From positions 92,940,001 to 93,004,000 of the forward strand of contig NC_086097.1 of NCBI RefSeq assembly GCF_963921235.1: DNA of 64,000 bases, given 5' to 3'. A program made the translations under genes and the position numbers. Below, piece after piece: positions 1 to 58,240 of the stretch; the stretch's first letter is position 1, and every line of letters begins with the position of its first letter. The notes under the pieces are model-generated. The model had not been told where the DNA came from. It ran no database searches and saw nothing but the letters and a program-made list of their open reading frames with translations. The stretch is from Mobula hypostoma (Eukaryota).

Positions 1-414
1 GGGTTCACATCGATGGGGTCTCAGTCTGGGATCGGGGTGAGGGTAGGGGCTCTGTGAATGGAAATGTGGTGAATGTGGGGGTGGGGACAATGCTTGGGTG
101 GAGGTCTAAAGGGAAAGGCCTGGATGAGTGGGAAGTGAATTGGCAAACAGGATCTGGAATGGGAGTGTCCAATGCTTGCTTGGTGAAGGGAGGAGCTCAG
201 AAATGGGCGTGGTGTCTGGGAGTGACTCCAGGTGGGGAATATCAGGAATGAGGTGGGGGGGGGGGGAGATGTCTGGAATGGGAAAAGTGTCCAGCGAATA
301 GTAAGGTGGGAAATGTTCAGAATGCTGAAGGTGTCTGGGTAAGTGTTGGAAGTCGTGAGGTGTCCGGGGAATGTTAGGTAACTGACATTCTAGTGAATAC
401 AAACTTCTGGTCAT

Positions 415-835
415 ATGAAGAGCGTTTGACGGCTCTGGGCCCGTAGTCGTCAGAATTCAGAATGAGGGGTGACGTCATCAAGACCTATCAAATGGTGAAA
501 GGTCTTGATAGAGTGGATGTGGAGAGGATGTTTCCTATGGTGGGAAATTCTAAGACCAGAGGACACAGCCTAAGAATAGACAAGGAGTCCTTTTAGAATA
601 GACATGAGGTGGAACTTCTTTAGCCAAAGAGTGGTGAATCTGTGGAATTCATTGTCACAGGCAGCTGTGGAGACCAATATTTAACCATACGAATATTTAA
701 GGCAGAGGTTGATAGATCCTTGATTGGTCAAGGCATGAAGGGATATGGGCGAAGGCAGGAGATTGGGGCTGAGAGGAAAAATGGATCAGCCATGATGAAA
801 TGGTGGAGCAGACTCGATGGGCCAAATGGCCTAAC
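415..835 (+). mobile_element. CR1-type LINE, degraded 3' fragment
   Basis: Matches the CR1 ORF2 C-terminus and 3'UTR pattern repeated across the window (gaatgaggggtgac...agagtggtgaatctgtggaattc...gatgggccaaatggcct). Confidence 0.85.
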
Positions 836-1295
836 TGGAGCTTTAGCACTAACTGCAACACAACTGCACCATACTGATCGCAATTCCCGAGCATCAGCTA
901 ATAAAGGACAGTTGACTGTCAATTTAAGAGGCCACGGGCAATTGAAACGTGCAAGTTTTAGGGTGATAAGATATCTCGCAAATGGTGAGGTGCTGTGCAC
1001 AGAATCATTTAATAGCAGGGTGGGAATAGTTTGTCCTCAAAGTAAAACAACTGGGCATATACTATCTATTTTAATTGGGCTGACTGAAACAAAACAAGAG
1101 CAGTCCTATAATTAATGGTTTGTTTTATTTAGCAGAACAGCAATTATATGCATCCAAAGTAAAACTGTCATTAACATTCCAAATGAAGGCGGCTGTATAG
1201 AACTGATAGCACTGGAACAGGCTGTTTGCCCTACAACTCCATGCCAGTGTTTGTGTTCCTGAAGGGTCTTCACCCACCCTTGTTCATCCAGCCCA

Positions 1296-1655
1296 GGTGA
1301 GGTGGCACTGTGGCACAGCTGTGAGGCGTTTGATCCTATTGGCTGGACTGCAGCGGTTACCTGGGTGCTCCCGTTCCCTCCCACATCTGAAAGGCATGCG
1401 GCAGGGGTGCCCAACTGGGGGTCCATGGACCCCTTGCTCAATGGTAGGTGTCCATGGCATAACAAAGGCCGGGGACCTCTCGTGTGTGGATTGATAAGTA
1501 AATTGACCCTTGATGTAGGTGAGAGGTAGATATGGGGAGAGAGTAAAATAAAGAGGGTTTATGTAGGATTAGTGTAAATGTGGTTGATGGTCATCATGGA
1601 CTGAATAGGCCAAAGGGTCTCATTCCATGCTGAATACTGTACCTCTTTGACTCTT
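1296..1655 (+). mobile_element. tRNA-derived V-SINE/HE1-like SINE, interrupted by a MITE
   Basis: Degenerate head ggcactgtggcacagc, core gggtgctcccgttccctcccacatc, CR1-like tail (ggccaaagggtctcattccatgctg). Confidence 0.7.
1402..1481. mobile_element. 80-bp hAT-like MITE
   Basis: Imperfect TIRs caggggtgcccaac / ggccggggacctctc. The 8-bp flanks gcatgcgg and gtgtgtgg are both explicable as CpG-decayed gcgtgcgg. A related copy lies at 57497-57576. Confidence 0.65.
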
Positions 1656-2174
1656 TGTCAATCAGTGTAATCGCTTTCACAATGGAAAAAAAAATCTTGT
1701 TAAGTCTTAGGGGGAAGTCATGTCTTATCAACTTGATTGGAATTTTGAAGGCAGTGATAAATAAGGATACAGCTGTGGATGTTGTCTACATGGATTTTGT
1801 TAAGGCGTTGGACAACATCCCTCAAAAATATCCAGTATAAATGATGTATTGATATAGAGGAGATTTACAAGGATGTTGCCTGGATTGGGGAGCATGCCTT
1901 ACAAGAATAGGTTACGTGAACTTGGCCTTTTCTCCTTGGAGCGACGGAGGATGAGAGGTGACCTGATAGAGGTGTGTAAGATGATGAGAGGCATTGATCA
2001 TGTGGACAGACAGAGGCTTTTTCCCAGGGCTGAAATGGCTAGCACAAGAGTTTTAAGGTGCTTGGAAGCAGGTACAGGGGAGATGTCGGGGCAAGTTTTT
2101 TTTCCCCACAGAGAGTGGTGAGTGCATGGAATGGGCTGCCGGCGGTGGTGGAGGCAGATACGATTGTGTCTTTT

Positions 2175-3425
2175 TTTAAAAAATCTTTTTATTGAATAAG
2201 TATACAAAAAAGGTAAGCCATATAAACATTAATACAATGTTAAAGTATAATAAAATTCCAAAAGGTATCAATACCAAAAAAAAATACTACAAACAATGTA
2301 ATTTAAACATAAGAAACCAAGATAACATAATAGTATACTAAATTTTATATATATCAATGGAAAAAAAAAGAAAAAAAAACCCCAAAAAAAAACCCACCGT
2401 GCAACTAACTAAAAGCAAAGCAAAGCAATGGGCTAACTTGAAACCAAACAGAGTTAAACTTAAAATCACGTCCTCAATCCCGACCTCCATTAAAAACAGT
2501 GAAAAAAAACAAGAAGGGTAAATATTACATTAAATGAAAATATCGAATAAAAGGTCCCCAAATCTGTTCAAATTTAAATGAAGAATCATAAAGGTTACTT
2601 CTAATTTTCTCCAAGTTCAAACATAAAATCGTCTGAGAAAACCAAAAAAAGGTAGTTGGAGCATTAAGCTCTTTCCAATGTTGTAAAATACATCTTTTCG
2701 CCATTAAAGTAAGAAATGCAATCATTCTACGGACTGAAGGGGAAAGATTACTAGAAATTTTAGGTAGTCCAAAGATAGCAGTAATAGGGTGAGGAGAGAT
2801 ATCTATATTTAATACCTTAGAAATAATATTGAAAATATCTCTCCAAAAAGTTTCCAAAGTAGGGCAAGACCAAAACATATGAGTTAAAGAGGCTATCTGC
2901 CCCGAACATCTATCACAGAAAGGATTAATATGCGAGTAAAAACGCGCTAACTTATCTTTGGACATATGTGCTCTATGAACCACTTTAAATTGAATTAGGG
3001 AATGTTTAGCACAAATAGAGGAAGTATTAACTAATTGTAAAATCTGCCCCCAATCATCCACAGAAATGGTAAGCCCCAATTCCTGTTCCCAATCTACCCT
3101 AATCTTATCAAATGGAGCTTTCCTAAGTTTCATAATAATATTATAAATCATAGTCGATGCACCTTTCTGACATGGATTGAGGTTAATTATCGAATCTAAA
3201 ATATATGTAGGAGGAAGCATTGGAAAGGAAGAAAGTATAGTACTTAGGAAATTTCTAACTTGTAAATATCTAAAAAAATGTATTCTTGATAAGTTATATT
3301 TATTAGATAATTGTTCAAAAGACATAAGGGAACCATCTAAAAATAAATCCAAAAACCGTAAAATACCCTTAGTCTTCCAAGTTTGAAAAGCGCGATCCGT
3401 AAAAGAGGGAGGAAAAAATATGTTA
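2175..3425 (-). mobile_element. 5'-truncated L1-clade LINE with A-rich tail and 13-bp TSD
   Basis: TSD gattgtgtctttt at 2162-2174 and 3426-3438; AATAAA and A-rich tail on the minus strand; ORF2 C-terminal coding region. Confidence 0.93.
2525..3352 (-). pseudogene. L1 ORF2 C-terminal fragment with CCHC (zf-RVT-like) zinc knuckle, uninterrupted for 275 aa
   Basis: Motifs FFRYLQVR, LIQFKVVHRAH and CDRC...SLTHMFWSC are typical of fish L1 ORF2. Confidence 0.9.
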
Positions 3426-6446: not shown

Positions 6447-7800
6447 TCGTTAAGATCAAAGAACTGATTGTGGACTTCAGAAACGGTAAGACGAGCAAAC
6501 ACACACCGGTCCTCATAGAGGGATCAGAAATGGAAAGAGTGAGCAGTTTCAAGTTCCTGCATGTCAGTATCTCTGAGGATCTATTCTCGACCCAACATAT
6601 TGATGCTTCTACAAAGAAGGCACGACAGCAGCTCTATTTCATTCAGAATTTGAGAAGATTTGGTCCTGTGTGTCACCAAAAATATTTTACAGACGTACTG
6701 TGGAGAACATTTAAACTGGCTACATCACCGTCTGGTATGAAGTGTGTGTGTGGGGGCAGGGTGCTACAGCACAGGATTAAAGTAAGTTTCAGAGAGTCAA
6801 GGAGCAATGACTCAAAAAGGCAGTGTCCATCGCTAAGGAGCCCCAACACCCAGGTGTTGCTTCCATCAGGGAGGAGAGACCCGAGCCAAAAGGCACACAC
6901 TCAATGATTCAGGAACAGCTACTTCCCCTCTGCCATCTGATTTCTCAATGGACATTGAACCCATGAACACTACCTCACTACTTTTTTTTCTTGTTCTAGC
7001 ACTCGTTATTTAATTTAACTGTTATACAATATATATTTACTGTAATTCACAGTTTTTTCTCTATTATGCATTTCATTATACTGCTGCCACAAAGTCCACA
7101 AATATCATGATGGAGGATTACAAATACCTGTGGATACGAATTGACAATCAACTGGACTGGTCAAAGAACACTGAGGCTGTCTACAAGAAGGGTCAGAGCC
7201 GTCTCTATTTCCTGAGGAGACTGAGATCCTTTAACATCTGCCGGACGATGCTGAGCATGTTCTACAAGTCTGTGATGGCCAGTGCTATCAAGTTTGCTGT
7301 TGTGTGCTGGGGCAGCAAGCTGAGGGTAGCAGACACCAACAGAATCAACAAACTCATTCGTAAGGCCAGTGATGTTGTGGGGATGGAACTGGACTCTCTC
7401 ACGGTGGTGTCTGAAAAGAGGATGCTGTCTAAGTTGCATGCCATCTTGGACAATGTCTCCCATCCACTACATAATGTACTGGTTGGGCAGAGTAGTACAT
7501 TCAGCCAGAGACTCATTCCACCGAGATGCAACACAGAGCATCAAAGGAAGTCATTCCTGCCTGTGGCCATCAAACTTTACAACTCCTCCCTTGGAGGGTC
7601 AGACACCCTGAGCCAATAGGCTGGTCCTGGATTTATTTCCTGGCATAATTTACATATTACTATTTAACTATTTATGGTTTTATTACTATTTAATTATTTA
7701 TGGTGCAACTGTAATGAAAACTAATTTCCCCCGGGATCAATAAAGTATGACTATGACTATATGACTATGACATATGCCAGTGATATTAAACCTGATTCTT
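6447..7800 (+). mobile_element. Rex1/Babar-type LINE 3' fragment (host of the nested insertion)
   Basis: KELIVDFR...ERVSSFKFL...KKARQQLYF. The tail catatgccagtgatattaaacctgattct resumes at about 7770. Confidence 0.8.
7108..7770 (+). mobile_element. Younger Rex1/Babar-type LINE 3' fragment with (TATGAC)n tail
   Basis: Open 170-aa frame YKYL...KKGQSRLYFLRRLRSF...HPLH...SFLPVAIKLYN; AATAAA followed by tatgac repeats. Confidence 0.88.
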
Positions 7801-8450
7801 AACCAGTGCTTCAATATCTCTCAAAAACTGAGGTCCCTAAAGCTGTTATCCTTGCCTTTTATTCTGACAGGGACAAACAAACCCTCGAAATTTTAGTTTT
7901 GGATGCCTCCCATGTAAAAAGTACACCTTTGCCAGGAAACAGCCTGTCCCAATCTGTACTTGCCAGATCATTTCTGATACCATCAAAATTGGCTTTCCTC
8001 CAATTTACGTTTGTAGAATCTCAACCTGAGGAACTGAAAACTGTTACTTAATTTTCTTGGAATTTATGGCATTATGATCACTAGGTGCAAAGTGTTCCCC
8101 TATTCAAACTTCTGTCACCTACCCTTTCTCATTCCCTAATAACAGATCTAGTATCACATTCTCTCTAGTTGGGACTAGTATGTACTGATTAAGGAAACGG
8201 TCCTGAACACATTCAACAAACTCTTTCCCATCCAGCCCTTTTACAGTATGGGAGTCCCAGTCAATATGTGGAAAGCAAAAATCACAACCTTATGTTTCTT
8301 GCAATTGTCTATGACGTCTCTACAAATTTGCTGCTCTAAATCCCGCAGATTGTTGGGTGGTCAATAATAACGGTATCCCATTAACATGGTGGTACCTTTC
8401 TTATTCCTCAGTCCTACCTATAAAGCCTTACTGGACGAGCTCTCTGGTCT

Positions 8451-9417
8451 CGCAAACACGAGGAAATCTGCAGATGCTGGGATTTCAAGCAACACACATA
8501 AAAATTGCTGGTGAATGCAGCAGGCCAGGCAGCATCTCTAGGAAGAGGGCCCCTACGTGACTCCCTTGTCCATTCGTTCCCCCCCATCCCTCCTCACCGA
8601 TCTCCCTCCTGGCACTTATCCTTGTAAGCAGAACAAGTGCTACACCTGCCCTTACACTTCCTCCCTTACCACCATTCAGGGCCTCAGACAGTCCTTCCAG
8701 GTGAGGCAACACTTCACCTGTGAGTCGACTGGGATGATATACTGCGTCCGGTGCTCCCGATATGGCCTTCTATATATTGGCAAGACCTGACGCAGACTGG
8801 GAGACCGCTTTGCTGAACACCCACGCTCTGTCCGCCAGAGAAAACAGGATCTCCCAGTGGCCACACATTTTAATTCCATGTCCCATTCCCATTCGGATAT
8901 GCCTATCCATGGCCTCCTCTACTGTCAAGATGAAGCCACACTCAGGTTGGAGGAACAACACCTTATATTCCGTCTGGGTAGCCTCCAACCTGATGGCATG
9001 AACATTGACTTCTCTAACTTCCGCTAATGCCCCACCTCCCCCTCGTACCCCATCCGTTATTTATTTATATACACACATTCTTTCTCTCACTCTCCTTTTT
9101 CTCCCTCTGTCCCTCTCACTGTACCCTTTGCCCATCCTCTGGGCTTCTCCCCCCCCTTTTCTTTCTCCCTGGGCCTCCTGTCCCATGATCCTCTCATATC
9201 CCTTTTGCCAATCAACTGTCCAGCTCTTGCCTCCATCCCTCCCCCTCCTGTCTTCTCCTATCATTTTGGATCTCCCCCTCCCCCTCCCACTTTCAAATCT
9301 CTTACTAGCTCTTCTTTCAGTTAGTCCTGACGAAGGGTCTCAGCCCGAAACGTTGACTGTACCTCTTCCTAGAGATGCTGCCTGGCCTGCTGCGTTCACC
9401 AGCAACTTTTATGTGTG
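8451..9417 (+). mobile_element. Penelope-like element (Neptune-type GIY-YIG region plus 3' repeat) with a short inverted 3'-end copy at 8451-8548
   Basis: YPCKQNKCYTC linker and IYCVRCSRYGLLYIGKT. TSD gagctctct(g/a)gtct at 8437-8450 and 9418-9431. Confidence 0.92.
9318..9360 (+). ncRNA. Minimal type I hammerhead ribozyme (GUU triplet variant)
   Basis: agtc-CTGACGA-A-gggt ctca gccc-GAAA-CGTT-gact. Confidence 0.75.
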
Positions 9418-10539
9418 GAGCTCTCTAGTCTGTCCTGATTGAGCACTGCAGTGACATATTCCTTGACTAGTAATGCCACCCCTCCCCCTTTAATCCTTCA
9501 CACTCTATCACGTCTAAAACAACAGAACCCTGAAACATTGAGCTGCCAGTCCTGCCCATCCTGCAACCAAGTCTCACCAATGGCCACAAAGTCATAATTC
9601 CACATGCTGATCCATGCCCTAAACTCACCTGCCTCTCCTACAATATTCCTTGCATTGAAATATCTGCAGCTCAGAACATTAGTCCCACTATGCTCAACCT
9701 TTCCATTCCTGACTTTGTGCAAAGACTTGATGTCTCTCTCCACAACCATTCCACCAGCCGTTCTGGCATTCTGGTTTCCACACCCCCGCAGCTCTAGTTT
9801 AAATCACACCCCCCCCCCATGCAGCACTAGTAAACCCATGCACCACAATATTAGTCCTCCTCCAGTTCAGGTGCAAACCATTCCTTCTGTACAGGTCCCA
9901 CCTTCCCTGGAAGGGAGCTCAATGATCCAAAAATCTGAAGCCCTCACTCCTGCCCCAACCCCATATCCACATGTTAAACTGTATGATCTGGCCTCACCAG
10001 CACGTGGCACAGGTAGCAATGCTGCGATCAGAACCCTGGAGGTCCTGTATTTTAACTTAACACCTAACTCCCTGAACACACTTTGCAGGACCTAACCATG
10101 ACATTGTGACCGATGTGGACCACGACCTCTGACTGTTCAGTCTTCCACTTAAGAAGACTGTGGACTCCACCCGAGATGTCCTTGATCCTGGCATCTGGGA
10201 CGCCATCTAAGAATCTTGTTCTCGTCTGTTCCCCTTACCAACAAATCCCCTATCACTACAGCTCGCCTCTTCTCCCTCCTTCACTTTTGAGCCACAGAGC
10301 CAGACTCAGTGCCAGAGACCTGACTGCTGTAGCTTTCCTCTGCTACATCGTCCCTCCCAACAGTATCCAAAGTGGTGTACCTGTTGTTGAGGGGAATGGC
10401 CACAGGGGTACTCTGCAGTGATTACCTATTCCCTTTCCCCTACCTAATGGTCACCCAGTTACATGTGTTCTGCACTTTGTGTATAACGTCTTCCCTGTAT
10501 ACCCTGTCTATCAACCCCTCAGCCTCCTGAATGATCTGG

Positions 10540-19415: not shown

Positions 19416-19552
19416 AAAAAACATATGGAGATAGATAGAAGTGCTATAGAAATGTAAACATGAGGAAATGTGCAGATGCTGGAAATTCAAGCAACACACA
19501 TCAAAGTTGCTGGTGAACGCAGCAGGCCAGGCAGCATCTCTAGGAAGAGGTG

Positions 19553-19594
19553 CAGTCGACGTTTCAGGCTGAGACCCTTCGTCAGGACTAACTG
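19553..19594 (-). ncRNA. Minimal type I hammerhead ribozyme
   Basis: Minus strand: agtc-CTGACGA-A-gggtctcagcct-GAAA-CGTC-gact. Confidence 0.78.
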
Positions 19595-22192
19595 AAGGAA
19601 GAGCTAGTAAGAGATTTGAAAGTGGGATGGGGAGGGGGAGATCTGAAATGATAGGAGAAGACAGGAGGGGGAGGGATGGAGCCAAGAGCTGGACAGGTGA
19701 TAGGCAAAGGGGATATGAGAGGACCATGGGATCTAGGGAGAAAGAAAGGGGGAAGGGGGAAGCCCAGAGGATGGGCAAGGAATATAGTGAGAGGACAGAG
19801 GGAGAAAAAGGAGAGAGAGAAAAAGAAAAAAATATATATATATAATAAATAAATAATGATGGGGTACGACGGGGAGGAGGGGCATTAACGGAAGTTAGAG
19901 AAGTCAATGTTCATGCCATCAAGTTGGAGGCTACCCAGACAGAATATAAGGTGTTGTTCCTCCAACATGAGTGTGGCTTTATCTTGACAGCAGAGGAGGC
20001 CATGGATAGACATATCAGAATGGGAATGGGACGTGGAATTAAAATGTGTGGCCACTGGGAGATCCTGCTTTCTCTGGTGGACAGAGCGTAGGTGTTCAGC
20101 AAAGCGGTCTCCCAATCTGCGTCGGGTCTCACCAATATATAGAAGGCCACATCGGGAGCACCGGACGCAGTATATCACCCCAGCCGACTCACAGGTGAAG
20201 TGTCGCCTCACCTGGAAGGACTGTCTGGGGCCCTGAATGGTGGTGAGGGAGGAAGTGTAAGGGCATGTGTAGCGCTTGTTCCACTTACAAGGATAAGTAC
20301 CGGGAGGGAGATCGGTGGGGAGGGATGGGGGGACGAATGGACAAGGGAGTCGTGTAGGGAGCGATCCCTGTGGAAAGCAGAAAGTGGGGGGGGGGGGAGG
20401 AAAATATGTGCTTAGTGGTGGGATCCTGTTGGAGGTGGTGGAATATCGGAGAATTATATGTTGGACCCGGAGGCTGGTGGGGTGGTAGGTGAGGACCAGG
20501 GGAACCCTATTCCTAGTGGGGTGGCGGGAGAATGGAGTGAGAGCAGATGTGCGTGAAATGGGGGAGATGCGTTTGAGAGCAGAGTTGATGGTGGAGGAAG
20601 GGAAGCCTCTTTCTTTAAAAAAGGAAAACATCTCCTTCGTCCTGGAATGAAAAGACTCATCCTGAGAGCAGACGTGGCAGAGACAGAGGAATTTGCGAGA
20701 AGGGGATGGCATTTTTGCAAGAGACAGGGTGAGAAGAGGAATAGTCCAGATAGCTGTGAGAGTCTGTAGGCTTATAGTAGACATCAGTAGATAAGCTGTC
20801 TCCAGAGATAGAGACAGAAAGATCTAGAAAGGATCAGAAATGGACCAGGTAAACTTGAGGGCAGGGTGAAAGTTGGAGCCAAAGTTAATAAAGTCAATGA
20901 GCTCAGCATGTGTGCAGGAAGCAGCGCCAATGCAGTCGTCGATGTAGTGAGGAAAAGTGGGGGACAGATACCAGTATAGGTTTGGAACATGGATTGTTCC
21001 ACAAAGCCAATGAAAAGGCAGGCTATCTGGACTATTCCTCTTCTCACCCTGTCTCTTGCAAAAATGCTATCCCCTTCTCGCAATTCCTCCGTCTCTGCCG
21101 CATCTGCTCTCAGGAGGAGGCTTTTCATTCCAGGACAAAAGAGATGTCCTCCTTTTTTAAAGAAAGGGGCTTCCCTTCCTCCACCATCAACTCTGCTCTC
21201 AAACACATCTCTCCCATTTCACGCACATCTGCTCTCACCTCATCTTCCCGTCACCCCACTAGGAATAGGGTTCCCCTGGTCCTCACCTACCACCCCACCA
21301 GCCTTGGGGTCCAACATATAATTCTCTGTAACTTCTGCCACCTCCAACGGGATCCCACCACTAAGCACATATTTTCCTCCCCTCCCCACTTTCTGCTTTC
21401 CGCAGGGATCGCTCCCTATTCGACTCCCTTGTCCATTCGTCCCCCACATCCCTCCCCACCAATCTCCTTCCTGGCACTTATCCTTGTAAGCGGAACAAGT
21501 GTTACACATGCCCTTACACTTCCTCCCTTACCACCATTCAGGGCCCCAGACAGTCCTTCCAGGTGAGGCAACACTTCACCTGTGAGTCGGCTGGGGTGAT
21601 ATACTGCGTCCAGTGCTCCTGATGTGGCCTTCTATATATTGGCGAGACCCGACGCAGACTGGGAGACTGCTTTGCTGAACACCTACGCTCTGTCCACCAG
21701 AGAAAGCAGGATCTCCCAGTGGCCACACATTTTAATTCCACATCCCATTCCCATTCTGACATGTCTATCCACGGCCTCCTCTACTGTAAAGATGAAGCCA
21801 CACTCAGGTTGGAGGAGCAACACCTTATATTCCGTCTGGGTAGCCTCCAACCTGATGGCATGAACATTTACTTCTCTAATTTCCGTTAATGCCCCTTCTC
21901 CCCCTCATACCCCATCGTTATTTATTTATTTATTTATTATATATTTTTTTCTTTTTCTCTCTCTCCTTTTTCTCCCTCTGTCCCTCTCACTATATCCCTT
22001 GCCCATCCTCTGGGTTTCCCCCCCGCCCCGCTTGTCTTTCTCCCCGGACCTCCTGTCCCATGATCCTCTCATATCCCCTTTGCCAATCACCTGTCCAGCT
22101 CTTGGCTCCATCCCTCCCCCTCCTGTCTTCTCCTATCATTTCAGATCTCCCCCTCCCCCTCCCACTTTCAAATCTCTTACTAGCTCTTCTTT

Positions 22193-22235
22193 CAGTTAGT
22201 CCTGACGAAGGGTCTCGGCCCGAAACGTCGACTGT
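22193..22235 (+). ncRNA. Minimal type I hammerhead ribozyme
   Basis: Helix I agtc/gact, CTGACGA at 22202-22208, helix II gggt-ctcg-gccc, GAAA, palindromic ACGT, predicted cleavage after C22229. Confidence 0.85.
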
Positions 22236-23395
22236 ACCTCTTCCTAGAGATGCTGCCTGGCCTGCTGCGTTCACCAGCAATTTTTATGTGTGTTGATAGA
22301 AATGTAATTCTGTTGTCTTTAAAAGTATTACCTTTTTGACTTGGCTGAAGGATCTATTTTTGCCTGAAAGTGACGGATCAGTTGTTATACTGAGTGACGT
22401 CAGATTGATGAACATCTTGGCATGGAATAGGAAGTAGCTAACCAAATCCTTTGCTATGGGTAATAGTTAAGAAATAGTTCTGGCCCTTTCACGTACTTGG
22501 TGCTGGTTCACTGTACTGTGGAGTATTGAAATCTCAGGTGTTGTACACCATTATTCTCAATGGGTACTTAATGGAACAGTATTACTCATGTGCTCTTACA
22601 TTCCTGCTGGGATGTACTAGAATATCACGGCATAGGGTCTGGCAATCCAAGTGTACAAGATCCTATTCCCTCTTTTTAGTCAGTTTGGCATGTTGGTTTG
22701 CTCAAGGAGCAATGCTAACCCCGGGATTCCAAACTCAGGATCCCGATCACCGAGAAGGATAAGCTCAGCAGATGCATGGTTACACCACCACCCGCAGGTT
22801 CCTCTCCAAGTCACACACTACCTTGGCTTGGGAATCTATCAACAGGCCTTCATCTCTCTCAGGTATGAATTCCTGGAACCCTCTACCCAAGAGCACTGTG
22901 AGAGTATCCTCATCCAAATGACCGCTTTGGTTCAAGAAGGCATCTCAGCACCACCTTCATATGGGCAGTGGGGGATGGGTTATAAATACGGGCCTTGTGA
23001 GAGTCCAACAAAGTGAATACATTAGGAAAAGGGTGTTTTTACCTGCTCCTGGGAGTAAAATATCACAACTACAGAAATCGCAGCTTTCGCACCACACCAG
23101 ATTTAAAAGTGCCAGCTGGACGCATTCCAGCAGACATCATAGACAGCCTGCTACACCCTGCCTCCAGGCTCTTGCTATTGGCCAGCAAACATGTCAATCC
23201 CTGACAATCTTGCCTTCCACACGGCCAATTGGAAAGCAAGCAGGTTCTTTATTATCAGAGTGGATTTTTTTTTCTCCATAGTTGGCAAGCAAACCTTTCA
23301 CGTATCTCAGACATTTTTATTCCCATTTTAAATTCCTATATTACTACTAACGAGTCTGCCAAGTAAAATCTTCATGAAAATGCATTTTCTCGTTC

Positions 23396-23759
23396 CTTAC
23401 TTACTTAAGCTCTCCACCCCTCCTGGGACAGCAGCTCACCCATCCTTTGTCCTGGGACAGCAGCTCACCCATCCTTTGTCCTGGGACAGCAGCTCACCCA
23501 TCCTTTGTCCTGGGGCAGTAGCTCACCCATCCTTTGTCCTGGGACAGCAGCTCACCCATCCTTTGTCCTGGGACAGCAGCTCACCCATCCTTTGTCCTGG
23601 GGCAGTAGCTCAAGTTGTATAATTCTTCTCCCGGGGATGAGGTCCTTGGAGCTTGTTTTGGTGTTTCTCTAGCTCTGGGCTTTTATGGAATGGAATTGCT
23701 AGCCCCATGCCCAGCCCTCCTCTTTTCGCAAGTGGGATTGTGTCCGTCACGGCAGAGTT
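23396..23759 (-). mobile_element. RTE-derived short non-autonomous element with (TAAG)n tail
   Basis: 5' part gagggctgggcatggggctagcaa resembles RTE 5'UTRs. It ends cttaagtaagtaag and has no ORF. Confidence 0.65.
23422..23612. repeat. 29-bp minisatellite, 6.6 copies
   Basis: Unit cctgggacagcagctcacccatcctttgt; units 4 and 7 are the variant cctggggcagtagctca. Confidence 0.97.
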
Positions 23760-23760
23760 A
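23715..23760 (-). ncRNA. Degenerate type P1 twister ribozyme
   Basis: Minus strand UAACUCUGCCGUGACGGACACAAUCCCACUUGCGAAAAGAGGAGGG follows the twister pattern UAAC..UGCC..CGGUCCCAAGCCCG..GAGGG. Confidence 0.6.
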
Positions 23761-25318
23761 TTTTCTTACCCTTACCATTTATTGTTTTATCTGATATTCA
23801 CCATTGAAGTTTCCGGTGCTCCACTCTTTAATTCCTCAAGACTACAGGAAACCCACTACCAGATTGACATAGATCGGAGTGGGAAAGGAATATGAAGGAG
23901 CCCTTAAATTTCAAGGGACCACAATTGTTTCTGAGACTTTATACTTATTCTTTACATTCTATGATATTAGGCAGTTGAGAATTTTCTCCATGGCTGTTAA
24001 GTTCTTCCCCAAGTTATGGAAAAAATAGCTGTAGAGCCTCTGTCAGAGGGTTCATCAAAAATTGAGACCTTTAAGCCCCATCTCTAATCATTTCAAGCTT
24101 ATAAGCTGTCTATGAAGCACAACAGTAAACTCAGGCAAGGAACATTCTCACTCCACCCCACGTGAGGAGATATTGGAAGTGACCAAAAACTGTGGCCGAA
24201 GTTATTGTCTTTAAGGACCACTTAAAGGAAGGAAATGAAGAACACAGAAGCAAGCATTTTCATGTACAACTATATAAAACTTTGGTATAATATGCAGATC
24301 TGGATGCCACGCTTCTGGATAAGGTGCAGAAGGGATTTACCAGAATGTACCAAACAAGATACTGGAGGGACTCAGCACATCAGGAAGCATCTGTGAAGGG
24401 AAATGGACAGTCGGGTTTCGGGTCAAGACCCTTCATCTGCTCCTGCAGTTAACTGCCTGGCCCAAGGCCACAAGAAGCTGCAGAAAACTGAGGACACAGC
24501 ACAGCACATCACTGAAACCAGCCTCCCATCCGTGGATTCTACCTACACTTCTCACTGCTTTGGTAAAGCAGCCAATATCAAAGACTTCTTTCACCATGAG
24601 GAGCCTCTCTTCCCCAACCCCACTAAGCAGAAGATAGAAAGCTTGAAAGCACATACCATCAGGCTCAACGACAGTTTCTGTCCTGCTGTTATAACTCTAT
24701 TAAGCAATATTGTACCTTTTGTATGATAAGATGAACACAATCTGCCTCCTCATGGCCTTTCACCTTATTGTCTACCTGCACTGCACTTTCTCCGTAACCG
24801 TAACACTTTATTCTGCATTCTGTTACTACTTTTGCCTTGAACCACCTTGATAGATGCCATCAGACAAAAATAATGAGAAACCAATTTACCAGTCACTTGT
24901 GTCTCCATTTTACCAGGAAGTTATCTGGGATGTAGTGTTGAAGTTATGAATGGGAGCCCAAGTTGTGTTTTTTTTTGAGTGGAGAAGATTGAGGGGATTT
25001 CTGATTGAGTCATACAAGGCTGCGATAGACACAGACAGGGAGATAGCCGTTTTTTTTCTTACAGTTCAGAGATAGCCACAACTAGAGGCAAAGACTTAAG
25101 GTAAGAATAGGAGATTCAGAGGGAATTTGATGAAAAGTTTTCTTTTCCCCCACTGAGTGTGGTTAAAGTCTGGAACACACTTCCTGAGTAGATGATGGAA
25201 TACTGAAATGAGCACTTGAAATGCTATGGCATAGAAGGCCTCGGGTCAATCAGTGGAGAGTGGGATTATTATAGGGAGGTTCTTGACAGCCAGCATAGAA
25301 AGAGAGGGCTAAAGTTTT

Positions 25319-38800: not shown

Positions 38801-39936
38801 ACTCCATCTCCGTCTCCGAGCCTACTTCTTCGGCAAGGACTCTTCCACCCCCACCGATGACCCCCTCTCCCGTCTTCAACCCTCCTCTTCTTCATGGACA
38901 CCCTGCTCTGGTCTTCTGCCTGCTCTGGATCTCTTTATCGCTAATTGCCGACGGGACATCAACCATCTCGACTTCACTTCACCCTGACCCCATTCCAACC
39001 TCACTCCTTCGGAACACTCTGCTCTCCACTCCCTCCGCACTAATCCTAACCTTATTATTAAAACCACCGATAAGGGGGGTGCTGTTGTAGTCTGGCGTAC
39101 TGACCTCTACCTTGCCGAGGCACAGCGACAACTCGCGGATACCTCCTCTTATTCTCCCTATCTCACATGCCCTTACACTTCCTCCCTTACCACCATTCAG
39201 GGCCCCAGACAGTCCTTCCAGGTGAGGCGACACTTCACCTGTGAGTCGGCTGTGGTGATATACTGCGTCCGGTGCTCCCGATGTGGCCTTCTATATGTTG
39301 GCGAGACCCGACGCAGACTGGGAGATCGTTTTGCTGAACACCTACACTCTGTCCGCCAGAGAAAGCAGGATCTCCCAGTGGCCACACATTTTAATTCCAC
39401 ATCCCATTCCCATTCTGATACGTCTATCCACGGCCTCCTCTACTGTAAAGATGAAGCCACACTCAGGTTGGAGGAACAACACCTTATATTCCGTCTGGGT
39501 AGCCTCCAACCTGATGGCATGAACATCGACTTCTCTAACTTCCGCTAAGGTCCCACCTCCCCCTCGTACCCCATCTGTTACTCATTTTTATGCACACATT
39601 CTTTCTCTCACTCTCCTTTTTCTCCCTCTGTCCCTCTGAATATACCTCTTGCCCATCCTCTGGGTCAACCCCCCCCCCACCGTCTTTCTTCCCGGACCTC
39701 CTGTCCCATGATCCTCTCGTATCCCTTTTGCCTATCACCTGTCCAGCTCTCGGCTCTATCCCTCCCCCTCCTGTCTTCTCCTATCATTTTGCATCTCCCC
39801 CTCCCCCTCCAACTTTCAAATCCCTTACTCTTCCTTCAGTTAGTCCTGACGAAGGGTCTCGGCCTGAAACGTCGACTGCACCTCTTCCTATAGATGCTGC
39901 TTGGCCTGCTGCGTTCACCAGCAACTTTGATGTGTG
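38801..39936 (+). mobile_element. Composite PLE: N-terminal DKG region (38801-39154) joined to GIY-YIG and 3' repeat (39167-39936), RT core missing
   Basis: RLRAYFF...NLTPSE...LIIKTTDKGGAVVVW...QLADTSSY, then VIYCVRCSRCGLLYVGET. Confidence 0.9.
39837..39878 (+). ncRNA. Minimal type I hammerhead ribozyme
   Basis: agtc-CTGACGA-A-gggtctcggcct-GAAA-CGTC-gact. Confidence 0.8.
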
Positions 39937-39971
39937 TCCCTATCTCACTGAGGGTTTGAGACCCGTCGGCT

Positions 39972-43309: not shown

Positions 43310-44530
43310 GGTCCCAGAAAAGGTGACGAAGAAGGCGTTTGGCGCCTGGCCTTCATCAGTGAGGAGACCGAGTGGAAGAATTGGGATGTTATGGTGCAGT
43401 TGTGAAAAATGTTGGTGAGACCACGTTTGGATAATCGTGTACAGTTTTGTCTATCCTGTGATAGGAAAGACATCAGTGAATCGGAAAGAATGCAGAGAAG
43501 ATTTATGAGGATGTTGCCAGAACTCAAGGCTTGAGTTAGAGGGAGAGCCAGGGCAAGCTGAGACTTGGTTCATTGGCACCTGGGAGATAGAAACATAGAA
43601 ACATAGAAAATAGGTGCAGGAGTAGGCCTTTCGGCCCTTCGAGCCTGCACCGCCATTCATTACGATCATGGCTGATCACCCAACTCAGAACCCAATACCT
43701 GCCTTCTCTCCATATCCCCTGATCCCTTTAGCCACAAGGGCCTTATCTAACTCCCTCTTACATATAGCCAATGAACTGGTCTCAACTGTTTCCTGTGGCA
43801 GAGAATTCCATAGATTCACCACTCTCTGTGTGAAGAAGTTTTTCCTCATCTCGGTCCTAAAAGGCTTCCCCTCTATCCTCAAACTGTGACCCCTCATTCT
43901 GGACTTCCCCAACATCGGGAACAATCTTCCTGCATCTAGCCTGTCCAATCCCTTTAGAATTTTATACGTTTCAATCAGATCCCCCCTCAATCTTCTAAAT
44001 TCCAGAGAGCATAAGCCCAGTCGATCCAGTCTTTCATCATATGAAAGTCCTGCCATCCCGGGAATCAATCTGGTGAACCTTCTTTGTACCCCCCCATGGC
44101 AAGAATGTCTTTCCTCAGATTAGGGGACCAAAACTGCACACAATACTCTAGGTGTGGATTGAGTGGATTCCTTATCAAGGTGTATAAAATCACAAGGAGC
44201 ATTGGTAGGGTGAATGCACACTCCTATTCTCATAGTCATAGTCATACTTTATTGATCCCGTGGGAAATTGGTTTTCGTTACAGTTGCACCATAAATAATA
44301 AATAGTAATAGAACCATAAATAGTTAAATAGTAATATAGAGAAGTGAATCTAAAACCAGAGGGTATAGATATAAGATGACAGCTGAAGATTTAAAAGGGA
44401 CCTGCAGAACAACTTTCGAGAGTGGTGGGTATATGGATTGAGCTCCAGAGGGGGTGGTTGAGGTAAGTCCAAGAACAAAAATCAAAAAGGCATTTGGATA
44501 AGGACATGGATAGGACAGGTTAGAGGAATC
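43310..44530 (+). mobile_element. Old CR1-type fragment hosting nested insertions, including a minus-strand (TATGAC)n tail piece at 44231-44337
   Basis: ttggtgagaccacgtttgga...gaggatgttgccag; resumes at about 44158 with atcaaggtgtataaaatc. Confidence 0.75.
43588..44157 (-). mobile_element. Young CR1-type 3' fragment with (TTTCTATG)n tail
   Basis: Open 127-aa frame LEFRRLRGDLIETYKILKG...FFTQRVVNLWNSLP; atagaaac repeats. Confidence 0.93.
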
Positions 44531-48809: not shown

Positions 48810-51325
48810 AGAATATATGGATGACATAAGGAATAATAAAGGTACAACCACATTAATGGGATTATATTATCGAGCACTCAATAGTCAGTGCTATTTAGAG
48901 GAGCAAATTTATAGAGAGATTGCAGACTGTTGCAAGAAACATAAAGGTTGTGAGAGTAGATGATTTTAACTTTTCACATATCGACTGGAACTCCCCATAC
49001 TGTAAAAGGGTTGGATAAGATAGAGTTTGTCAAATAGTTCAATATACAGTATAGAGGTCCCAACTAGAGAAGGTACTATACTGAATTTCCTATTAGGCAA
49101 TGAGACAGGAAGGTGACAAAAGTGTGTGTAGGGAAACACTTCAGACTCGGTGATCATAATTTCATTGGTTTCAAGACAATTATGGAGAAGAATAGGTTTG
49201 CTTCTCAAGTTAGATTCTAAATTGGAGAAAGGCCAATTTTGGTGGCATCAGAACACATTTGGCAAGTGTAGATTGGGGTAGATTATTTTCTGGCAATGGT
49301 ATGCTTGGTAAGCTGGAGACCTTCAAAAAAGAAATCTTGAGAGTACAGAGTTTGTACGTCCCCATCAGAATAAAAGGCAAGGCTTACAGGTTTAAGGAAC
49401 TTTGGTTTCTGAGAGATATTGAGGGCCTGGTTCAGAAGGAGGAGGAGGTGCTTAGCAGGTATCGACAAAAGGAACAAATAAGTACTTGAGCAGTGTAAGA
49501 AATGAAAGAGAATACTTAGAAGGATGTCAGGAGGGCTAGGCTAAAAGAAAACATGAGGATGTTCAAGCAAACAAGGTGAAGGATAACCCCAAGGGTTTCT
49601 ACAGATATTTTAAGAACAAAAGGATAGCAAGGTACAAAATTGGTTGCACTTGAAAATCAGCAGGGTCATCTATGCATGGAGCCAAAAAAGCTGGGGAAGA
49701 TCTTAAATAGATTTTTCTGCATCTGTATTTACTAGGGAGACAGTTACAAAGCCCATAGTAGTGAGGCAAAACAGCTTTGACGTCATTGACTGTATACAGA
49801 TTATATAGAGGAGGTGGTGTTTGTTGTCTTGAGATAATTTAGGGTGGATAAATCCCCAGGGCCTGACAAAGTGTTCCCTCAGAAATTTCAGAGGCCATTA
49901 GCAGAGTATTTAAAACATCCTTACCCGTAGGTGAGGTGTTGGAGGATTGGAGGATAGCTAATGTTGTTCCAATGTTATAGGCTGGTGAGTCTGACGTCAG
50001 TAGTGGGTAAACTATTGGAAGGTGTTCTAAGGGACCAGATATACAAGTATTTGAATAGACAAGACCTGATTAGGGATAGTCAACATGGTACATCATGTCT
50101 AACCAAACTTAGAGTTTTTCGAGGAAGTTACCAGGAAAATTGATGAAGGCAGTGGATGTTGTCTACATGGACCTTAGCAAAGTATTTGACAAGGTCTCAC
50201 ATGGGAGGCTGGCCAAGAATATTCAGTCACTTGGTATTCAGGATGAGGTAATAAATTAGTTTCAACATTGGCTTTGTGGAAGAAGCCAGCGAGTGGTAGA
50301 AAATAGTCATCTCACTGAGTGGAAGCCTGTAACTAGTATGCTGCAGGGATCAGTTCTGAGTCTGTAGTTGTTTGTCATCTATATCAACAATCGGGACGAT
50401 AATGTGGTAAACTAGATCAGCATATTTGCAGATGACATCAAGATTGGGGGTATAGTGGATAGTGAGCAAGGCCAACAAAGCTTGCAGCAGAATCTAGACC
50501 AGCTGGAAAAATGGGCTGAAGATCGGCAGAATGGAGCTTAATGCAGACAAGTGTGAAGTGTCACACTTGAGAGGACAAGCCAGGGTAGGACCTACGCAGT
50601 GAACAGTAGGGCTCTGAGGAGTGCAGTAGAACAAAGGGAGCTGGGAACACAGATCTTAATCCCTTGAAAGTGGCATCACAGCCAGATAGCTGTAAAGAGA
50701 GCTTTTAGCACATTGGCCTTCATAAATTAAAGTATTGAGTACAGGAGTTGGGATATTATGTTGAGGTCGAACAAGACATTAGTCTAATTTGGAGTACTGT
50801 GTGCAGTTGTGGTCGTCTACCTCCAGCGAAGATATGGATAGGACTGAAGGAGTTCAGAGAAAATTTACAAAGATGTTGCTGAGACTAGAATCTGAGTTCT
50901 AGGGGAGGGTTGGATAGGTTCGGACTCAACTCCCTGGAGCAAAGGAGAATGAGGAGAAATTTGATAGAGCTGTACAAAATCATGAGGGGTATAGATTGAA
51001 TAAATGCAAGCGGGCTTTTTCCACTGAGGTTGGGTGAGACTAGAACCAGAGGTCTTGGTTCAAGCACGAAAGTTGAAATATTAAAGGAGAACCTGAGGGG
51101 CAACTTCTCCACTCAGAGGGTGGAGAGAGTGTGGAATGAGCAGGAGTGGTGGATGTGGGTTAGGCTTTAACAGTTAAGAGAAGTCTGGATAGGTACATCG
51201 ATGGTACAAGTATGGAGGGATATAGTCCAAGTGCAAGTTGATGTGACTAGGCAGAATAGTACTTGGGCAAAAACTAGATGGACTGAAGGGCCTGTTTTTA
51301 TGTTGTAGTTCTCTGTGACTCAATG
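48810..51325 (+). mobile_element. Long degraded CR1-type LINE (EN end, RT, 3'UTR)
   Basis: YRLVSLTSVVGKLLE, tttgcagatgac (FADD) and a 3'UTR; many stops. Confidence 0.92.
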
Positions 51326-51360
51326 ACATGTTACCACTTGTATATTATTTAAGGTTATTT

Positions 51361-52150
51361 CATAAAGTCATAGAAAAGTACAGCACAGAAACAGGCCCTT
51401 CACCCATCTAGTCCATGCCAAGCCTTTGGATTTGCCAACTCACGTCGACCTGCATCAGGACCATGGACCTCCAAGGCCCTACCATCCATGTACCTATCCA
51501 AACTTCTCTTAAACGTTGAAATCAAGCTTGCTTGTACCACTTGTGCTGGCAGCTCGTTCCACCTTCTCACAACCCTCTGAGTGAAGTAGTTTCCCCTCAC
51601 GTTCCCCTTAAACTTTTCAACTTTCACTCTTATCCAATGGCTCTATTGAAGTCCCATCCAACCTCCATGGAAAAAGCCTGCTTACATTTACCCTATCTAC
51701 ACCCCCTCAGTTTTGTATACCCCTATCAAATCTCTCCCCAATCTTCTACTTTCCAAGGAATGAAATCCTAATCTATTCAATTTTTCTTTACAACTCAGGT
51801 CCCCCAGACCCAGCAACATCCATGTAAATTTTTTCTGTATTCTCAACCTTATTTACATCATTCCTGCAGGTAGGTGGCCAAAACTGCACAAAATACTCCA
51901 AATTAGGCCTCGCCAATATCTCATACAACTTCAACATAACACCCTGTACTCAATACTTCGATCTATGAGGGCCAACAGGCCAGAAGGTTTCTTTATGACC
52001 CTATCCACCTGTGATAGTTTCAATGACTTATGGACCTGTATTCCCAGATCCCTGTGCTCTACCACACTGCTCGGCTCAGTGCCCTACCGCTCCCTGTGGA
52101 AGACTGATTGGTCCTACAGAAGTGCCACCTCACACCTGTCTGCATTAACT
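51361..52150 (-). mobile_element. CR1-type 3' fragment, tail-to-tail with the previous element
   Basis: FTQRVVRRWNELP; ctatgactttatg tail. Confidence 0.9.
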
Positions 52151-53169
52151 TCTGTCAATTAAATGGATCAGTATAAGCACTGTATTTTTCTCCAACATGT
52201 TAACATATGAAGATCCAAAGGCAGCAATTTTAAGGAGCTGGGCCACAACCATGTCTTAGCATACACATTGTGTTGCTCTGTATACTTACTCCACTTGGGA
52301 TTCACAATCCTGGGGTAATGATCCAAAGAGCAAGAAGCTAAGAAAGTTGTTCATCTGAAAGTTGTTCATAGTAAATCTGAAATGCAGAACTGTATGATTA
52401 TGGGCGATAGTGAATCTATCAGACAGGTTAAGAAATGGAAATATTCTGACCATTGCTTGCCCGGATAACTTTTCGTTTCAGACTCACAGTAATGTGGCTG
52501 ACTCTTAATTGGCCAGTGAAATGACCCAGCAAACTATCAGTTCAAGGGCAAAAGGAAGGGGGTAATAAATACTGGGCTTTCTGGTGACGCAGCAATAAAA
52601 ACAATGTCTCAGTGTTTGCACACATAGCATGGCATTGAGCTGCCCTCCACCTGCATCACAGCCTGTGACAGGGAACTGCATTGTCCCTGCGTCTTGCTGC
52701 ATGGCGTAAGAGACAGAGATTTGAAACACTTTGAAACTCACAATTGTTTTATATTTACATAGTTGTTCATTATTATACAATATACTTTTCAGAGGTTCCA
52801 GGTTTGGTGAAAAGTAGTTTCAAGAATATACTTTTGAGTCCTTTTTGTTTGGTGTCTTTCACAGACATCGCATTATGCAACTGTAATTAGATATGTTCAA
52901 TCTTTGTAATATTTCACATGGATTTAATTAAGTCAGAGTCTTAGAGCAATGTTCCTACAACCAATGGACTCACTTTCAAAGACACTTCATCTCATGTTCT
53001 CAATCTTTATTGCTTATTTATTAATTATTATTATTTCTTTTTGTATTTGCAGAGTTTGTCTTCTGCACTCAGGTCAAATCCCCTGGTTGAGTGGTCTTTC
53101 ATTGATTCCATTATGGTTGTTATTCTATAGATCTATTGAGTATGCCCACAAGAAAATTAATCTAAAAAT

Positions 53170-54050
53170 GCAAACACAAGGAAATCTGCAGATGCTGGAA
53201 TTTCAAGCAACACACATAAAAGTTGCTGGTGAACGCAGCAGGCCAGGCAGCATCTCTAGGAAGAGGTACAGTCGACGTTTCGGGCCAAGACCCTTCATCA
53301 GGACTAATTGAAAGAAGAGCTAGTAAGAGATTTGAAAGTGGGAGGGGGAGTGGGAGATCTGAAATGATAGGAGAAGACAGGAGGGGGAGGGATGGAGCCA
53401 AGAGCTGGACGGGTGATTGGCAAAAGGGATATGAGAGTCATGGGACAAGAGGCCCGGGGAGAAAGAAAAGGGTGAGGGGGGAAGCTCAGAGGATGGGCAA
53501 GGAGTATAGTGAGAGGGACAGAGGGAGAAAAAGGAGAGAGAGAGAAAAATAATGTGTGTATATAAATAAATAACAGATGGGGTACGAGGGGGAGGTGGGG
53601 CATTAGCAGAAGTCTGAGAAGTCAATGTTCATGCCATCAGGTTGGAGGCTACCCAGACGGAATATAAGGTGTTGTTCCTCCAACCTGAGTGTGGCTTCAT
53701 CTTTACAGTAGAGGAGGCCATGGATAGACGTATCAGAATGGGAATGGGATGTGGAATTAAAATGTGTGGCCACTGGGAGATCCTGCTTTCTCTGACAGAC
53801 AGAGCATAGCTGTTCAGCGAAACGATCTCCCAGTCTGTGTTGGGTCTCGTCAACATATAGAAGGCCACATCGGGAGCACCGGACACAGTATATCACCCCA
53901 GCTGACTCACGGGTGAAGTGTCACCTCACCTGGAAGGACTGTCTGGGGCCCTGAATGGTGGTGAGGGAGGAAGTGTAAGGGCATGTGTAGCACTTGTTCC
54001 GCTTACAAGGATAAGTGCCAGGAGGGAGATCAGTGGAGAGGGATGGGGGA
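53170..54050 (-). mobile_element. 5'-truncated PLE inserted in a Rex/L2-type tail (host 52945-54120, plus strand)
   Basis: IYCVRCSRCGLLYVDET; complete 3' repeat; the host resumes at aatctctgggttgtatatgg. Confidence 0.92.
53269..53310 (-). ncRNA. Minimal type I hammerhead ribozyme, canonical CUGAUGA core
   Basis: Minus strand: agtc-CTGATGA-A-gggtcttggccc-GAAA-CGTC-gact. Confidence 0.85.
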
Positions 54051-54163
54051 GACAAATCTCTGGGTTGTATATGGTGACGTACATGCACTTTGATAATAAA
54101 TTTACTTTGAATTTTGAACATGAAAATAAGTCTTTGGTGCCACCGAGTCTGCTCTGACTATTA

Positions 54164-57838: not shown

Positions 57839-58240
57839 ACCACGACCGTGGCGTTGGGTTTGGAAGCTTGTGCACCTCAATGACCAGGAGAGCTATGTTG
57901 GTTGGAGACAGGACTTTATGCTTGGCTCTCGGTAGGGTCACCCATGCCAAACAAGTCAAAGGGTAGAGGCCAGACTAAGAGTGGTCCATCAGACCTCCAG
58001 ATTTAGGGGTTCAGCCCAGGACTAACAACCTGATTGGTAAAACAAAATTGTTACAGAAACAGCAATGAAAAATCCTTCTACATCTGCATGCGACAGTATT
58101 CCTGAGTCTCCACCCGGGACTTGCATAACTGACAGTAGTGAAACCTGAGTTACTAACATGATGAAGAAAGCCCGGGACACCGCCAGAGATGGAGGACCTT
58201 CAGTGCTGCCCTGAACACCTGCAGCATAACGGGCAGTACA
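57839..58240 (+). mobile_element. RTE/Expander-derived bipartite short element
   Basis: RTE-type 5'UTR motifs (gcttgtgcacctcaatgac...gagctatg...ggtagggtcaccca...ccagac) fused to an RTE-like 3' end; gagtg duplicated at 57834-57838 and 58241-58245. Confidence 0.7.

Follow-up and report, generated by a model that had tools for sequence, protein, structure and literature searches.

Layout of the insertion and its surroundings

The window, by which we mean the whole 64-kb stretch of DNA that was analysed, is repeat-rich, with broken LINE-type open reading frames and many internal repeats. On its minus strand, from 23759 to 23396, there is a 364-base segment that we are strongly inclined to regard as an old insertion, an internally deleted derivative of an RTE-type LINE with a twister ribozyme at its head. 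It consists of 137 bases of 5’ region joined at approximately 23623 to the end of an ORF and a tail, and its length is reduced to 219 bases once five extra repeat units are subtracted. No further copies of the element are present elsewhere in the 64-kb window.

Reading along the minus strand, the element begins with 49 bases (23759–23711) assigned to a decayed type-P1 twister ribozyme lacking P3, on the basis of Rfam family RF03160, a family-specific model (R1, see below) and a table of base pairs. Within it, the 13-base L4/P4 block (23745–23733) carries four substitutions, as recognized by comparison with intact relatives and with the loose ends of reads from other copies. A conserved 6-pair hairpin (23708–23690), identified from the pair table and from base-pair swaps among loci from other organisms, lies directly 3’ of the ribozyme, and is followed by the remainder of the RTE-type 5’ region (23689–23623), which is common to a high-copy family represented by hundreds of contigs and has a blastn match to a short outside element (L018; E 2e-13). 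The 3’ part (23622–23408) derives from the final codons of an RTE-type ORF, as indicated by alignment to the ends of two outside loci (L023 and L004) and by a match at the protein level, and it contains a 29-base tandem array of 6.6 copies (23612–23421; TRF score 356, 96% matches). The segment closes with a (TAAG)3 tail (23407–23396), which is the sole minus-strand run of at least two TAAG units in the window, and the earlier note was thus correct in describing the element as ending in (TAAG)n; the outside loci L004, L005, L018 and L023 end in the same tail. Candidate target-site duplications of 16 nt (23775–23760, the last base being the U before the cut site) and 17 nt (23400–23384, the first five bases overlapping the tail) lie at the 5’ and 3’ ends respectively.

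Two types of unit make up the 29-base array, arranged as A B B A B B b, and since units of the same type are identical the array is likely to have grown long after insertion. This minisatellite has an 87-base higher-order unit, has arisen out of the coding-derived 3’ end, and may be length-polymorphic.

Several other repeats are present in the window. An older RTE-like relic at 57950–58240 on the plus strand is the second match of model R1 (12 bits, E 0.35), and its head is not a twister; its 5’ part aligns to L004 (2 of 300 shuffles are as good) and its 3’ part resembles an ORF end by eye. It may be the ‘first’ element implied by the earlier note, whose reference to a ‘second’ RTE-derived element receives some weak backing from this weakly RTE-like match without a twister head. 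Repeats about 90% identical to one another and with remnants of GIY-YIG-like ORFs, which we take to be Penelope-like, are located at 8450–9420, 19450–22300, 39160–39940 and 53160–54060, and form a tandem pair at 19.4–22.3 kb, just beyond the twister-headed element. There is also a long self-inverted match at 49724–52148 (~70% identity) with LINE fragments in opposite orientation, and a 107-base stretch is duplicated at 7654–7760 and 44232–44337 (95% identity), each copy with a 26-base tandem pair.

A high-copy family and its RTE-type relatives

Evidence on the family comes from public sequencing reads and from loci of other organisms. Among the public sequencing runs the stretch is present in two organisms and in two studies, of which the best-matching may be the source of the window itself, and in the second (species B) the same insertion and flank are found with 7 differences in 473 bases, so the insertion predates the split of the two species; no empty-site allele was seen, species B carrying the insertion too. 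Four runs mapped on 23615–24100 gave 641, 598, 402 and 64 contigs, with X1 and X3 representing a single sample. The summed depth in X1 is ~10000 at 23700–23716, 204 at 23734–23750, 20.5 at 23751–23767, and 11.9 (a single contig) from 23768, such that the flank is covered by the locus’s own contig only, with depth at the single-copy level above 23767. Contigs are mostly clipped at 23722–23730 because the window copy is mutated there, and in all four runs the loose ends, trimmed to 30 letters, read an intact GGUCCCAAGCCC block at an agreement of about 0.7; among the loose ends listed, it is those at 23722, 23727 and 23730 (115 of the 641 X1 contigs) that do so.

The loose-end consensus of the four runs indicates that the family majority has an intact L4 block and is able to form both pseudoknots, and the inner end of P2 appears to be C-G in most copies (23723, about 87% of depth) versus U-A in the window copy. 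As judged from these sequences, the element belongs to a high-copy family, and the block is intact in the other copies of that family. The earlier note had named two findings that would speak against its reading, a consensus lacking the motif and pseudoknot pairings, and copies sharing homology well upstream of 23760; the first is contradicted by the intact L4 block of the other copies, and the second was not seen as far as the upstream boundary can be followed in the few contigs that cross the mutated block. No RNA run containing the window copy is listed among the public sequencing runs, and a run that is RNA by guess (X9) yielded 64 family contigs of which none reaches 95% likeness; these therefore show nothing about expression of the window copy.

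Metagenome contigs scanned for the core and the bases following it yielded 24 loci (L001–L024), in which invariance of the pseudoknot pairs is built in by the search pattern; scanning viral contigs for the motif gave no matches. A same-strand match to an endonuclease–reverse transcriptase (RT) ORF is present in 13 of the 24, and five of the other 11 have fewer than 340 bases of downstream sequence. L005, L007 and L023 contain ORFs of ~1030 aa, and that of L005, which is from another organism, is a single 1031-aa ORF with both AP endonuclease (Exo_endo_phos) and RT (RVT_1) domains; L005 also has a long TAAG tail, and its contig starts at AA. L017 has a 30-base head identical to the X1 loose-end consensus together with an ORF match (E 3e-127), and L004 and L018, from metagenomes and other organisms, are short two-part twister-headed elements ending in TAAG. 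We also note that L005 (1–3257), L023 (~150–3330) and L007 (ORF to the contig end) are apparently intact single-ORF, twister-headed elements, with or without P3, and that L018 has by eye an apparent ~7-base duplication adjoining AA.

The hairpin can be followed through these loci. All six of its pairs can form in the window copy, two of them as G.U where most other copies have G-C, and 18 of 19 distinct outside sequences (L017 dropped; a loop of 7 or 8 taken per sequence) have at least four of the six, with one pair being G-C in 13 sequences and A-U in 5. In alignment A1, in which relatedness is uncontrolled and the core is fixed by the search pattern, 87% of hairpin cells pair, and P2 has a C-G/U-A swap in 3 of 10 sequences. 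Lying just past the twister and showing G-C/A-U swaps across the organisms of L001–L024, the hairpin is a candidate cis signal.

The RTE derivation proposed in the earlier note is well supported at both ends of the element, with a 5’ region like those of the RTE-type loci and a 3’ part like the L004 and L023 ORF ends followed by a TAAG tail. The 3’ part reads QLELLPQDKGW and CPRRGGELK-stop, as compared with QLERKAQDRGSW and CPRRGPRHK-stop in L004. Eight comparisons of 3’-end DNA were made, and in three of them none of 500 shuffles aligned as well, with 3, 12, 16, 125 and 234 of 500 doing so in the others; the best alignments are to the ends of L023 and L004 (0 of 500 each), and those to other loci are weaker. 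These sequence comparisons support the derivation of the 3’ part from the end of an RTE-type ORF, and the partner LINE is provisionally assigned to the RTE clade from its architecture and from likeness to the Schistosoma heads discussed below. A tblastn search of the window with two outside ORFs gives only RT fragments 24–30% identical and no partner. We infer that the element was mobilised by an RTE protein, and its RNA would have been processed by twister cleavage.

The two-part structure could instead have arisen once, by loss of the interior of a full-length RTE copy as it inserted or afterwards, with no separately mobilised short family. Consistent with this, 33 contigs per DNA run depart from the window copy at 23623 and run on into different sequence, and the 23623 loose end reads GSSTRRCMKG (by eye, and at an agreement of only 0.5), which resembles GSSLRGFMKP close to the beginning of the L005 ORF; the read mapping reaches 8 bases past the 23623/23622 junction. 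However, L004 and L018 are two-part elements of the same build in other animals, and a bipartite build is a known habit of RTE elements in the cited part of PMC5786205, so we consider a one-off deletion unlikely, while giving it appreciable weight.

The 5’ boundary and the decayed ribozyme

The degenerate 16–17-base candidate duplication that flanks the element has its 5’ copy ending at U23760 and its 3’ copy overlapping the tail. The two match in 13 of 17 aligned columns, and matches as good were obtained for 152 of 20000 random flank pairs with the same anchoring (~0.8%), for 1457 of 20000 without anchoring, and for 99 of 20000 using the real 3’ flank; this degree of identity is, we infer, what two copies of such age might keep. 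Because the duplication ends at the U of the U^A cleavage site, that U is likely to belong to the target-site duplication and thus to host DNA, with the element starting at A23759, a refinement of the earlier note, which had placed the 5’ end at the U^A site. Upstream of the cut the 5’ strand of P1 is poor, with one A-U pair and one A.C, in keeping with the earlier note’s comment that no good P1 5’ strand is present; since most other copies have U at 23714, two A-U P1 pairs would have been possible at insertion. A similar arrangement is described for Perere-3 of Schistosoma mansoni, which is headed by T-variant twister ribozymes and in which the target-site duplication lies directly against AA and provides P1 with its 5’ strand (Liu et al. 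2021, PMC8501958, in the part cited).

The lack of a good built-in P1 in the family (33% of cells paired among the outside loci) raises the question of whether the twister was already a passenger, with 5’ ends set by the start of transcription or the end of reverse transcription and not by cleavage. We think this improbable, as independent loci have their boundaries at AA, P1 is dispensable according to the cited parts of PMC5113685 and PMC11662667, and the Schistosoma equivalents cleave at AA both in vitro and in yeast (PMC8501958, same part). The AA boundary is illustrated by L002 and L012, which agree at 89 of 90 bases from AA on and at 9 of 25 before it.

An origin as a Pol III SINE was considered and rejected, as there is no tRNA, 5S or 7SL head and the first position is occupied by the twister; no tRNA is predicted in 23000–24300, the element has no match to a B-box consensus, and Rfam gives no such match in 23300–24000. 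The term ‘SINE-like’ used in the earlier note fits only loosely, as the element lacks a tRNA head and B box and is better described as a bipartite LINE deletion derivative.

The reading preferred here, in which cleavage set the 5’ ends, concerns the parent RNA, and the window copy itself is decayed. Compared with intact relatives, its 13-base block has exactly four differences (23743 U>A, 23741 C>A, 23737 G>U and 23733 G>A), the number from which the earlier note had suggested a dead copy. Together these break both pseudoknots and one P4 pair, with C23752 facing U23737 in one pseudoknot, A23741 facing G23716 in the other, and C23746 opposite A23733 in P4; the U preceding CCC is now A at 23743. 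P2 retains all four pairs (23757–23754 with 23720–23723), one more than the CUC/GAG pairing that the earlier note described as kept, and no change has affected the A at the cleavage site (23759) or the G of GAGGG (23719). By our own mapping, we presume position 23737 to be colinear with G30 of the Osa-1-4 twister. In Osa-1-4, G30 is one of four positions at which any change gives a relative activity under 0.2 (PMC5113685, portion cited). Among 2625 natural twister candidates, defects of both pseudoknots are not tolerated together and P1 defects are harmless, and about 94% of natural twisters tested are active, with pseudoknot-defective ones retaining some activity (PMC11662667, portion cited). 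Because both pseudoknots and P4 are broken, the window copy is predicted to be inactive.

Continued cleavage by the window copy, or its co-option by the host, is very improbable. In favour are an intact acid A, base G and P2 and the retention of the insertion in two species, but set against this are the loss of both pseudoknots and P4, and a remainder with many departures from the family majority, such as neutral decay would produce.

Recognition of the relic as a twister rests on several comparisons. The minus-strand letters quoted in the earlier note are found at 23760–23715, and the order L1, P2, L2, P4, L4, colinear with Rfam twister-P1 (RF03160), is present in the window copy together with an NAA cut site and GAGGG. 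On a 121-base stretch RF03160 is the top match (23711–23764, 19.9 bits), with an E-value of 0.03 that is generous given that the stretch was picked after the fact. The score is below the gathering threshold (67.2 bits), at which the whole 64-kb window has no Rfam matches, and a search of 701 bases (23300–24000) at E<=10 reports no twister and three weak unrelated matches. RF03160 calls for a P3 stem and a P1 of four pairs, and as a control all eight of eight outside loci bearing an intact motif are also below gathering, with the intact relative L017 scoring 36.8 bits, so the negative result at gathering says little about the window copy.

Model R1, built from the 10 of 24 outside loci without P3 (two duplicates and one cut head being left out, as was the window copy), scores 63.7 bits (E about 1e-13) over 23669–23765, part of which is contributed by the hairpin region past the ribozyme; the next match in the 64 kb is the 12-bit relic noted above, and all 10 additional loci presented to the model were recovered. 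Single-strand folding reveals no unusual stability (z 0.03 to 0.58), plain folding being uninformative on a double pseudoknot. A scan of the window for the 13-base core with up to three mismatches gave three matches against 10.1 expected, and so no intact second twister is present. From its sequence, minus 23759–23711 is therefore confirmed as a twister-P1 relic, and mere chance likeness, to which the Rfam misses at gathering and on 701 bases and the near-zero folding z-scores might point, is refuted by the 63.7 bits of an independent model and by hundreds of related contigs with an intact motif, and has virtually no probability.

Proposed history, known elements and significance

These features suggest the following history. 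A host promoter would have read through a parent copy, and the twister would have cut before AA, fixing the 5’ end and freeing the parent RNA; that the parent RNA was cut from a host transcript in this way before insertion is likely. The protein of an autonomous RTE would then have bound the retained 3’ end, followed by target-primed reverse transcription of the RNA, with the tail perhaps pairing with GTAAG in the target, and the new flank would have contributed the nucleotide preceding the cut as well as a P1 of two pairs. Subsequently, both pseudoknots would have been lost to neutral decay, and the 29-base array would have expanded by slippage between two almost identical stretches within the 3’ part.

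The closest known system is Perere-3, with which the window element shares a 5’ twister, a start at AA, an adjoining duplication (a candidate one in the window element) that would give the 5’ strand of P1, and a GTAA-type tail, as well as the same bases past the ribozyme in a Schistosoma copy (PMC8501958 and its supplement, in the parts cited). In contrast to Perere-3, the window element lacks P3, is short, two-part, ORF-less and decayed, is known from its sequence, and resides in what appears to be a vertebrate-type genome. The part of the supplement searched has no matches for two cartilaginous-fish genera, Danio, Latimeria or the 22-base head; it does include vertebrate twisters, such as from catfish. 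A literature search judged by titles and the starts of abstracts, and not extending to subscription papers or Repbase reports, listed no primary study on the link between twisters and RTE elements other than PMC8501958.

Bipartite non-autonomous RTE elements such as RTE-N2_Lch, RTESINE2, WALLSI3 and Bov-A have been described (Kojima 2018, PMC5786205), and in the part of that paper cited here they consist of an RTE LINE’s 5’ end fused to its extreme 3’ end and carry a microsatellite tail, as does the window element; they usually retain the very 5’ end of the LINE, which the paper ties to 5’ ribozymes. The ribozyme class is not called twister in that part, and the work cited there concerns HDV-like ribozymes. 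The window element differs from these in that its 3’ part is coding-derived and contains a tandem array. HDV-like and hammerhead ribozymes are found in the same role (PMC6765202, part cited). The overall arrangement is thus already published for the blood-fluke element, and the window case adds another example rather than a new principle.

As a single copy the window element has little weight, as it is a repeat predicted to be dead and its kind was described in 2021; the value of the family is modest. With this family, RTE elements headed by twisters become known from another animal group and in short non-autonomous forms, and because the Rfam threshold misses P3-less twisters (in eight of eight motif-bearing loci) they are likely to be under-counted in animal genomes. 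We give about even chances to a broader proposal, that the twister and conserved downstream hairpin serve generally as the 5’ module in a broad lineage of animal RTE elements extending far past Schistosoma, in which the twister would free the RNA, the hairpin would be a cis signal that the mini-elements must keep, and the flank at the insertion site would decide whether a copy can jump again. If this is true, the large family of Mobula hypostoma would allow a vertebrate test of such a module.
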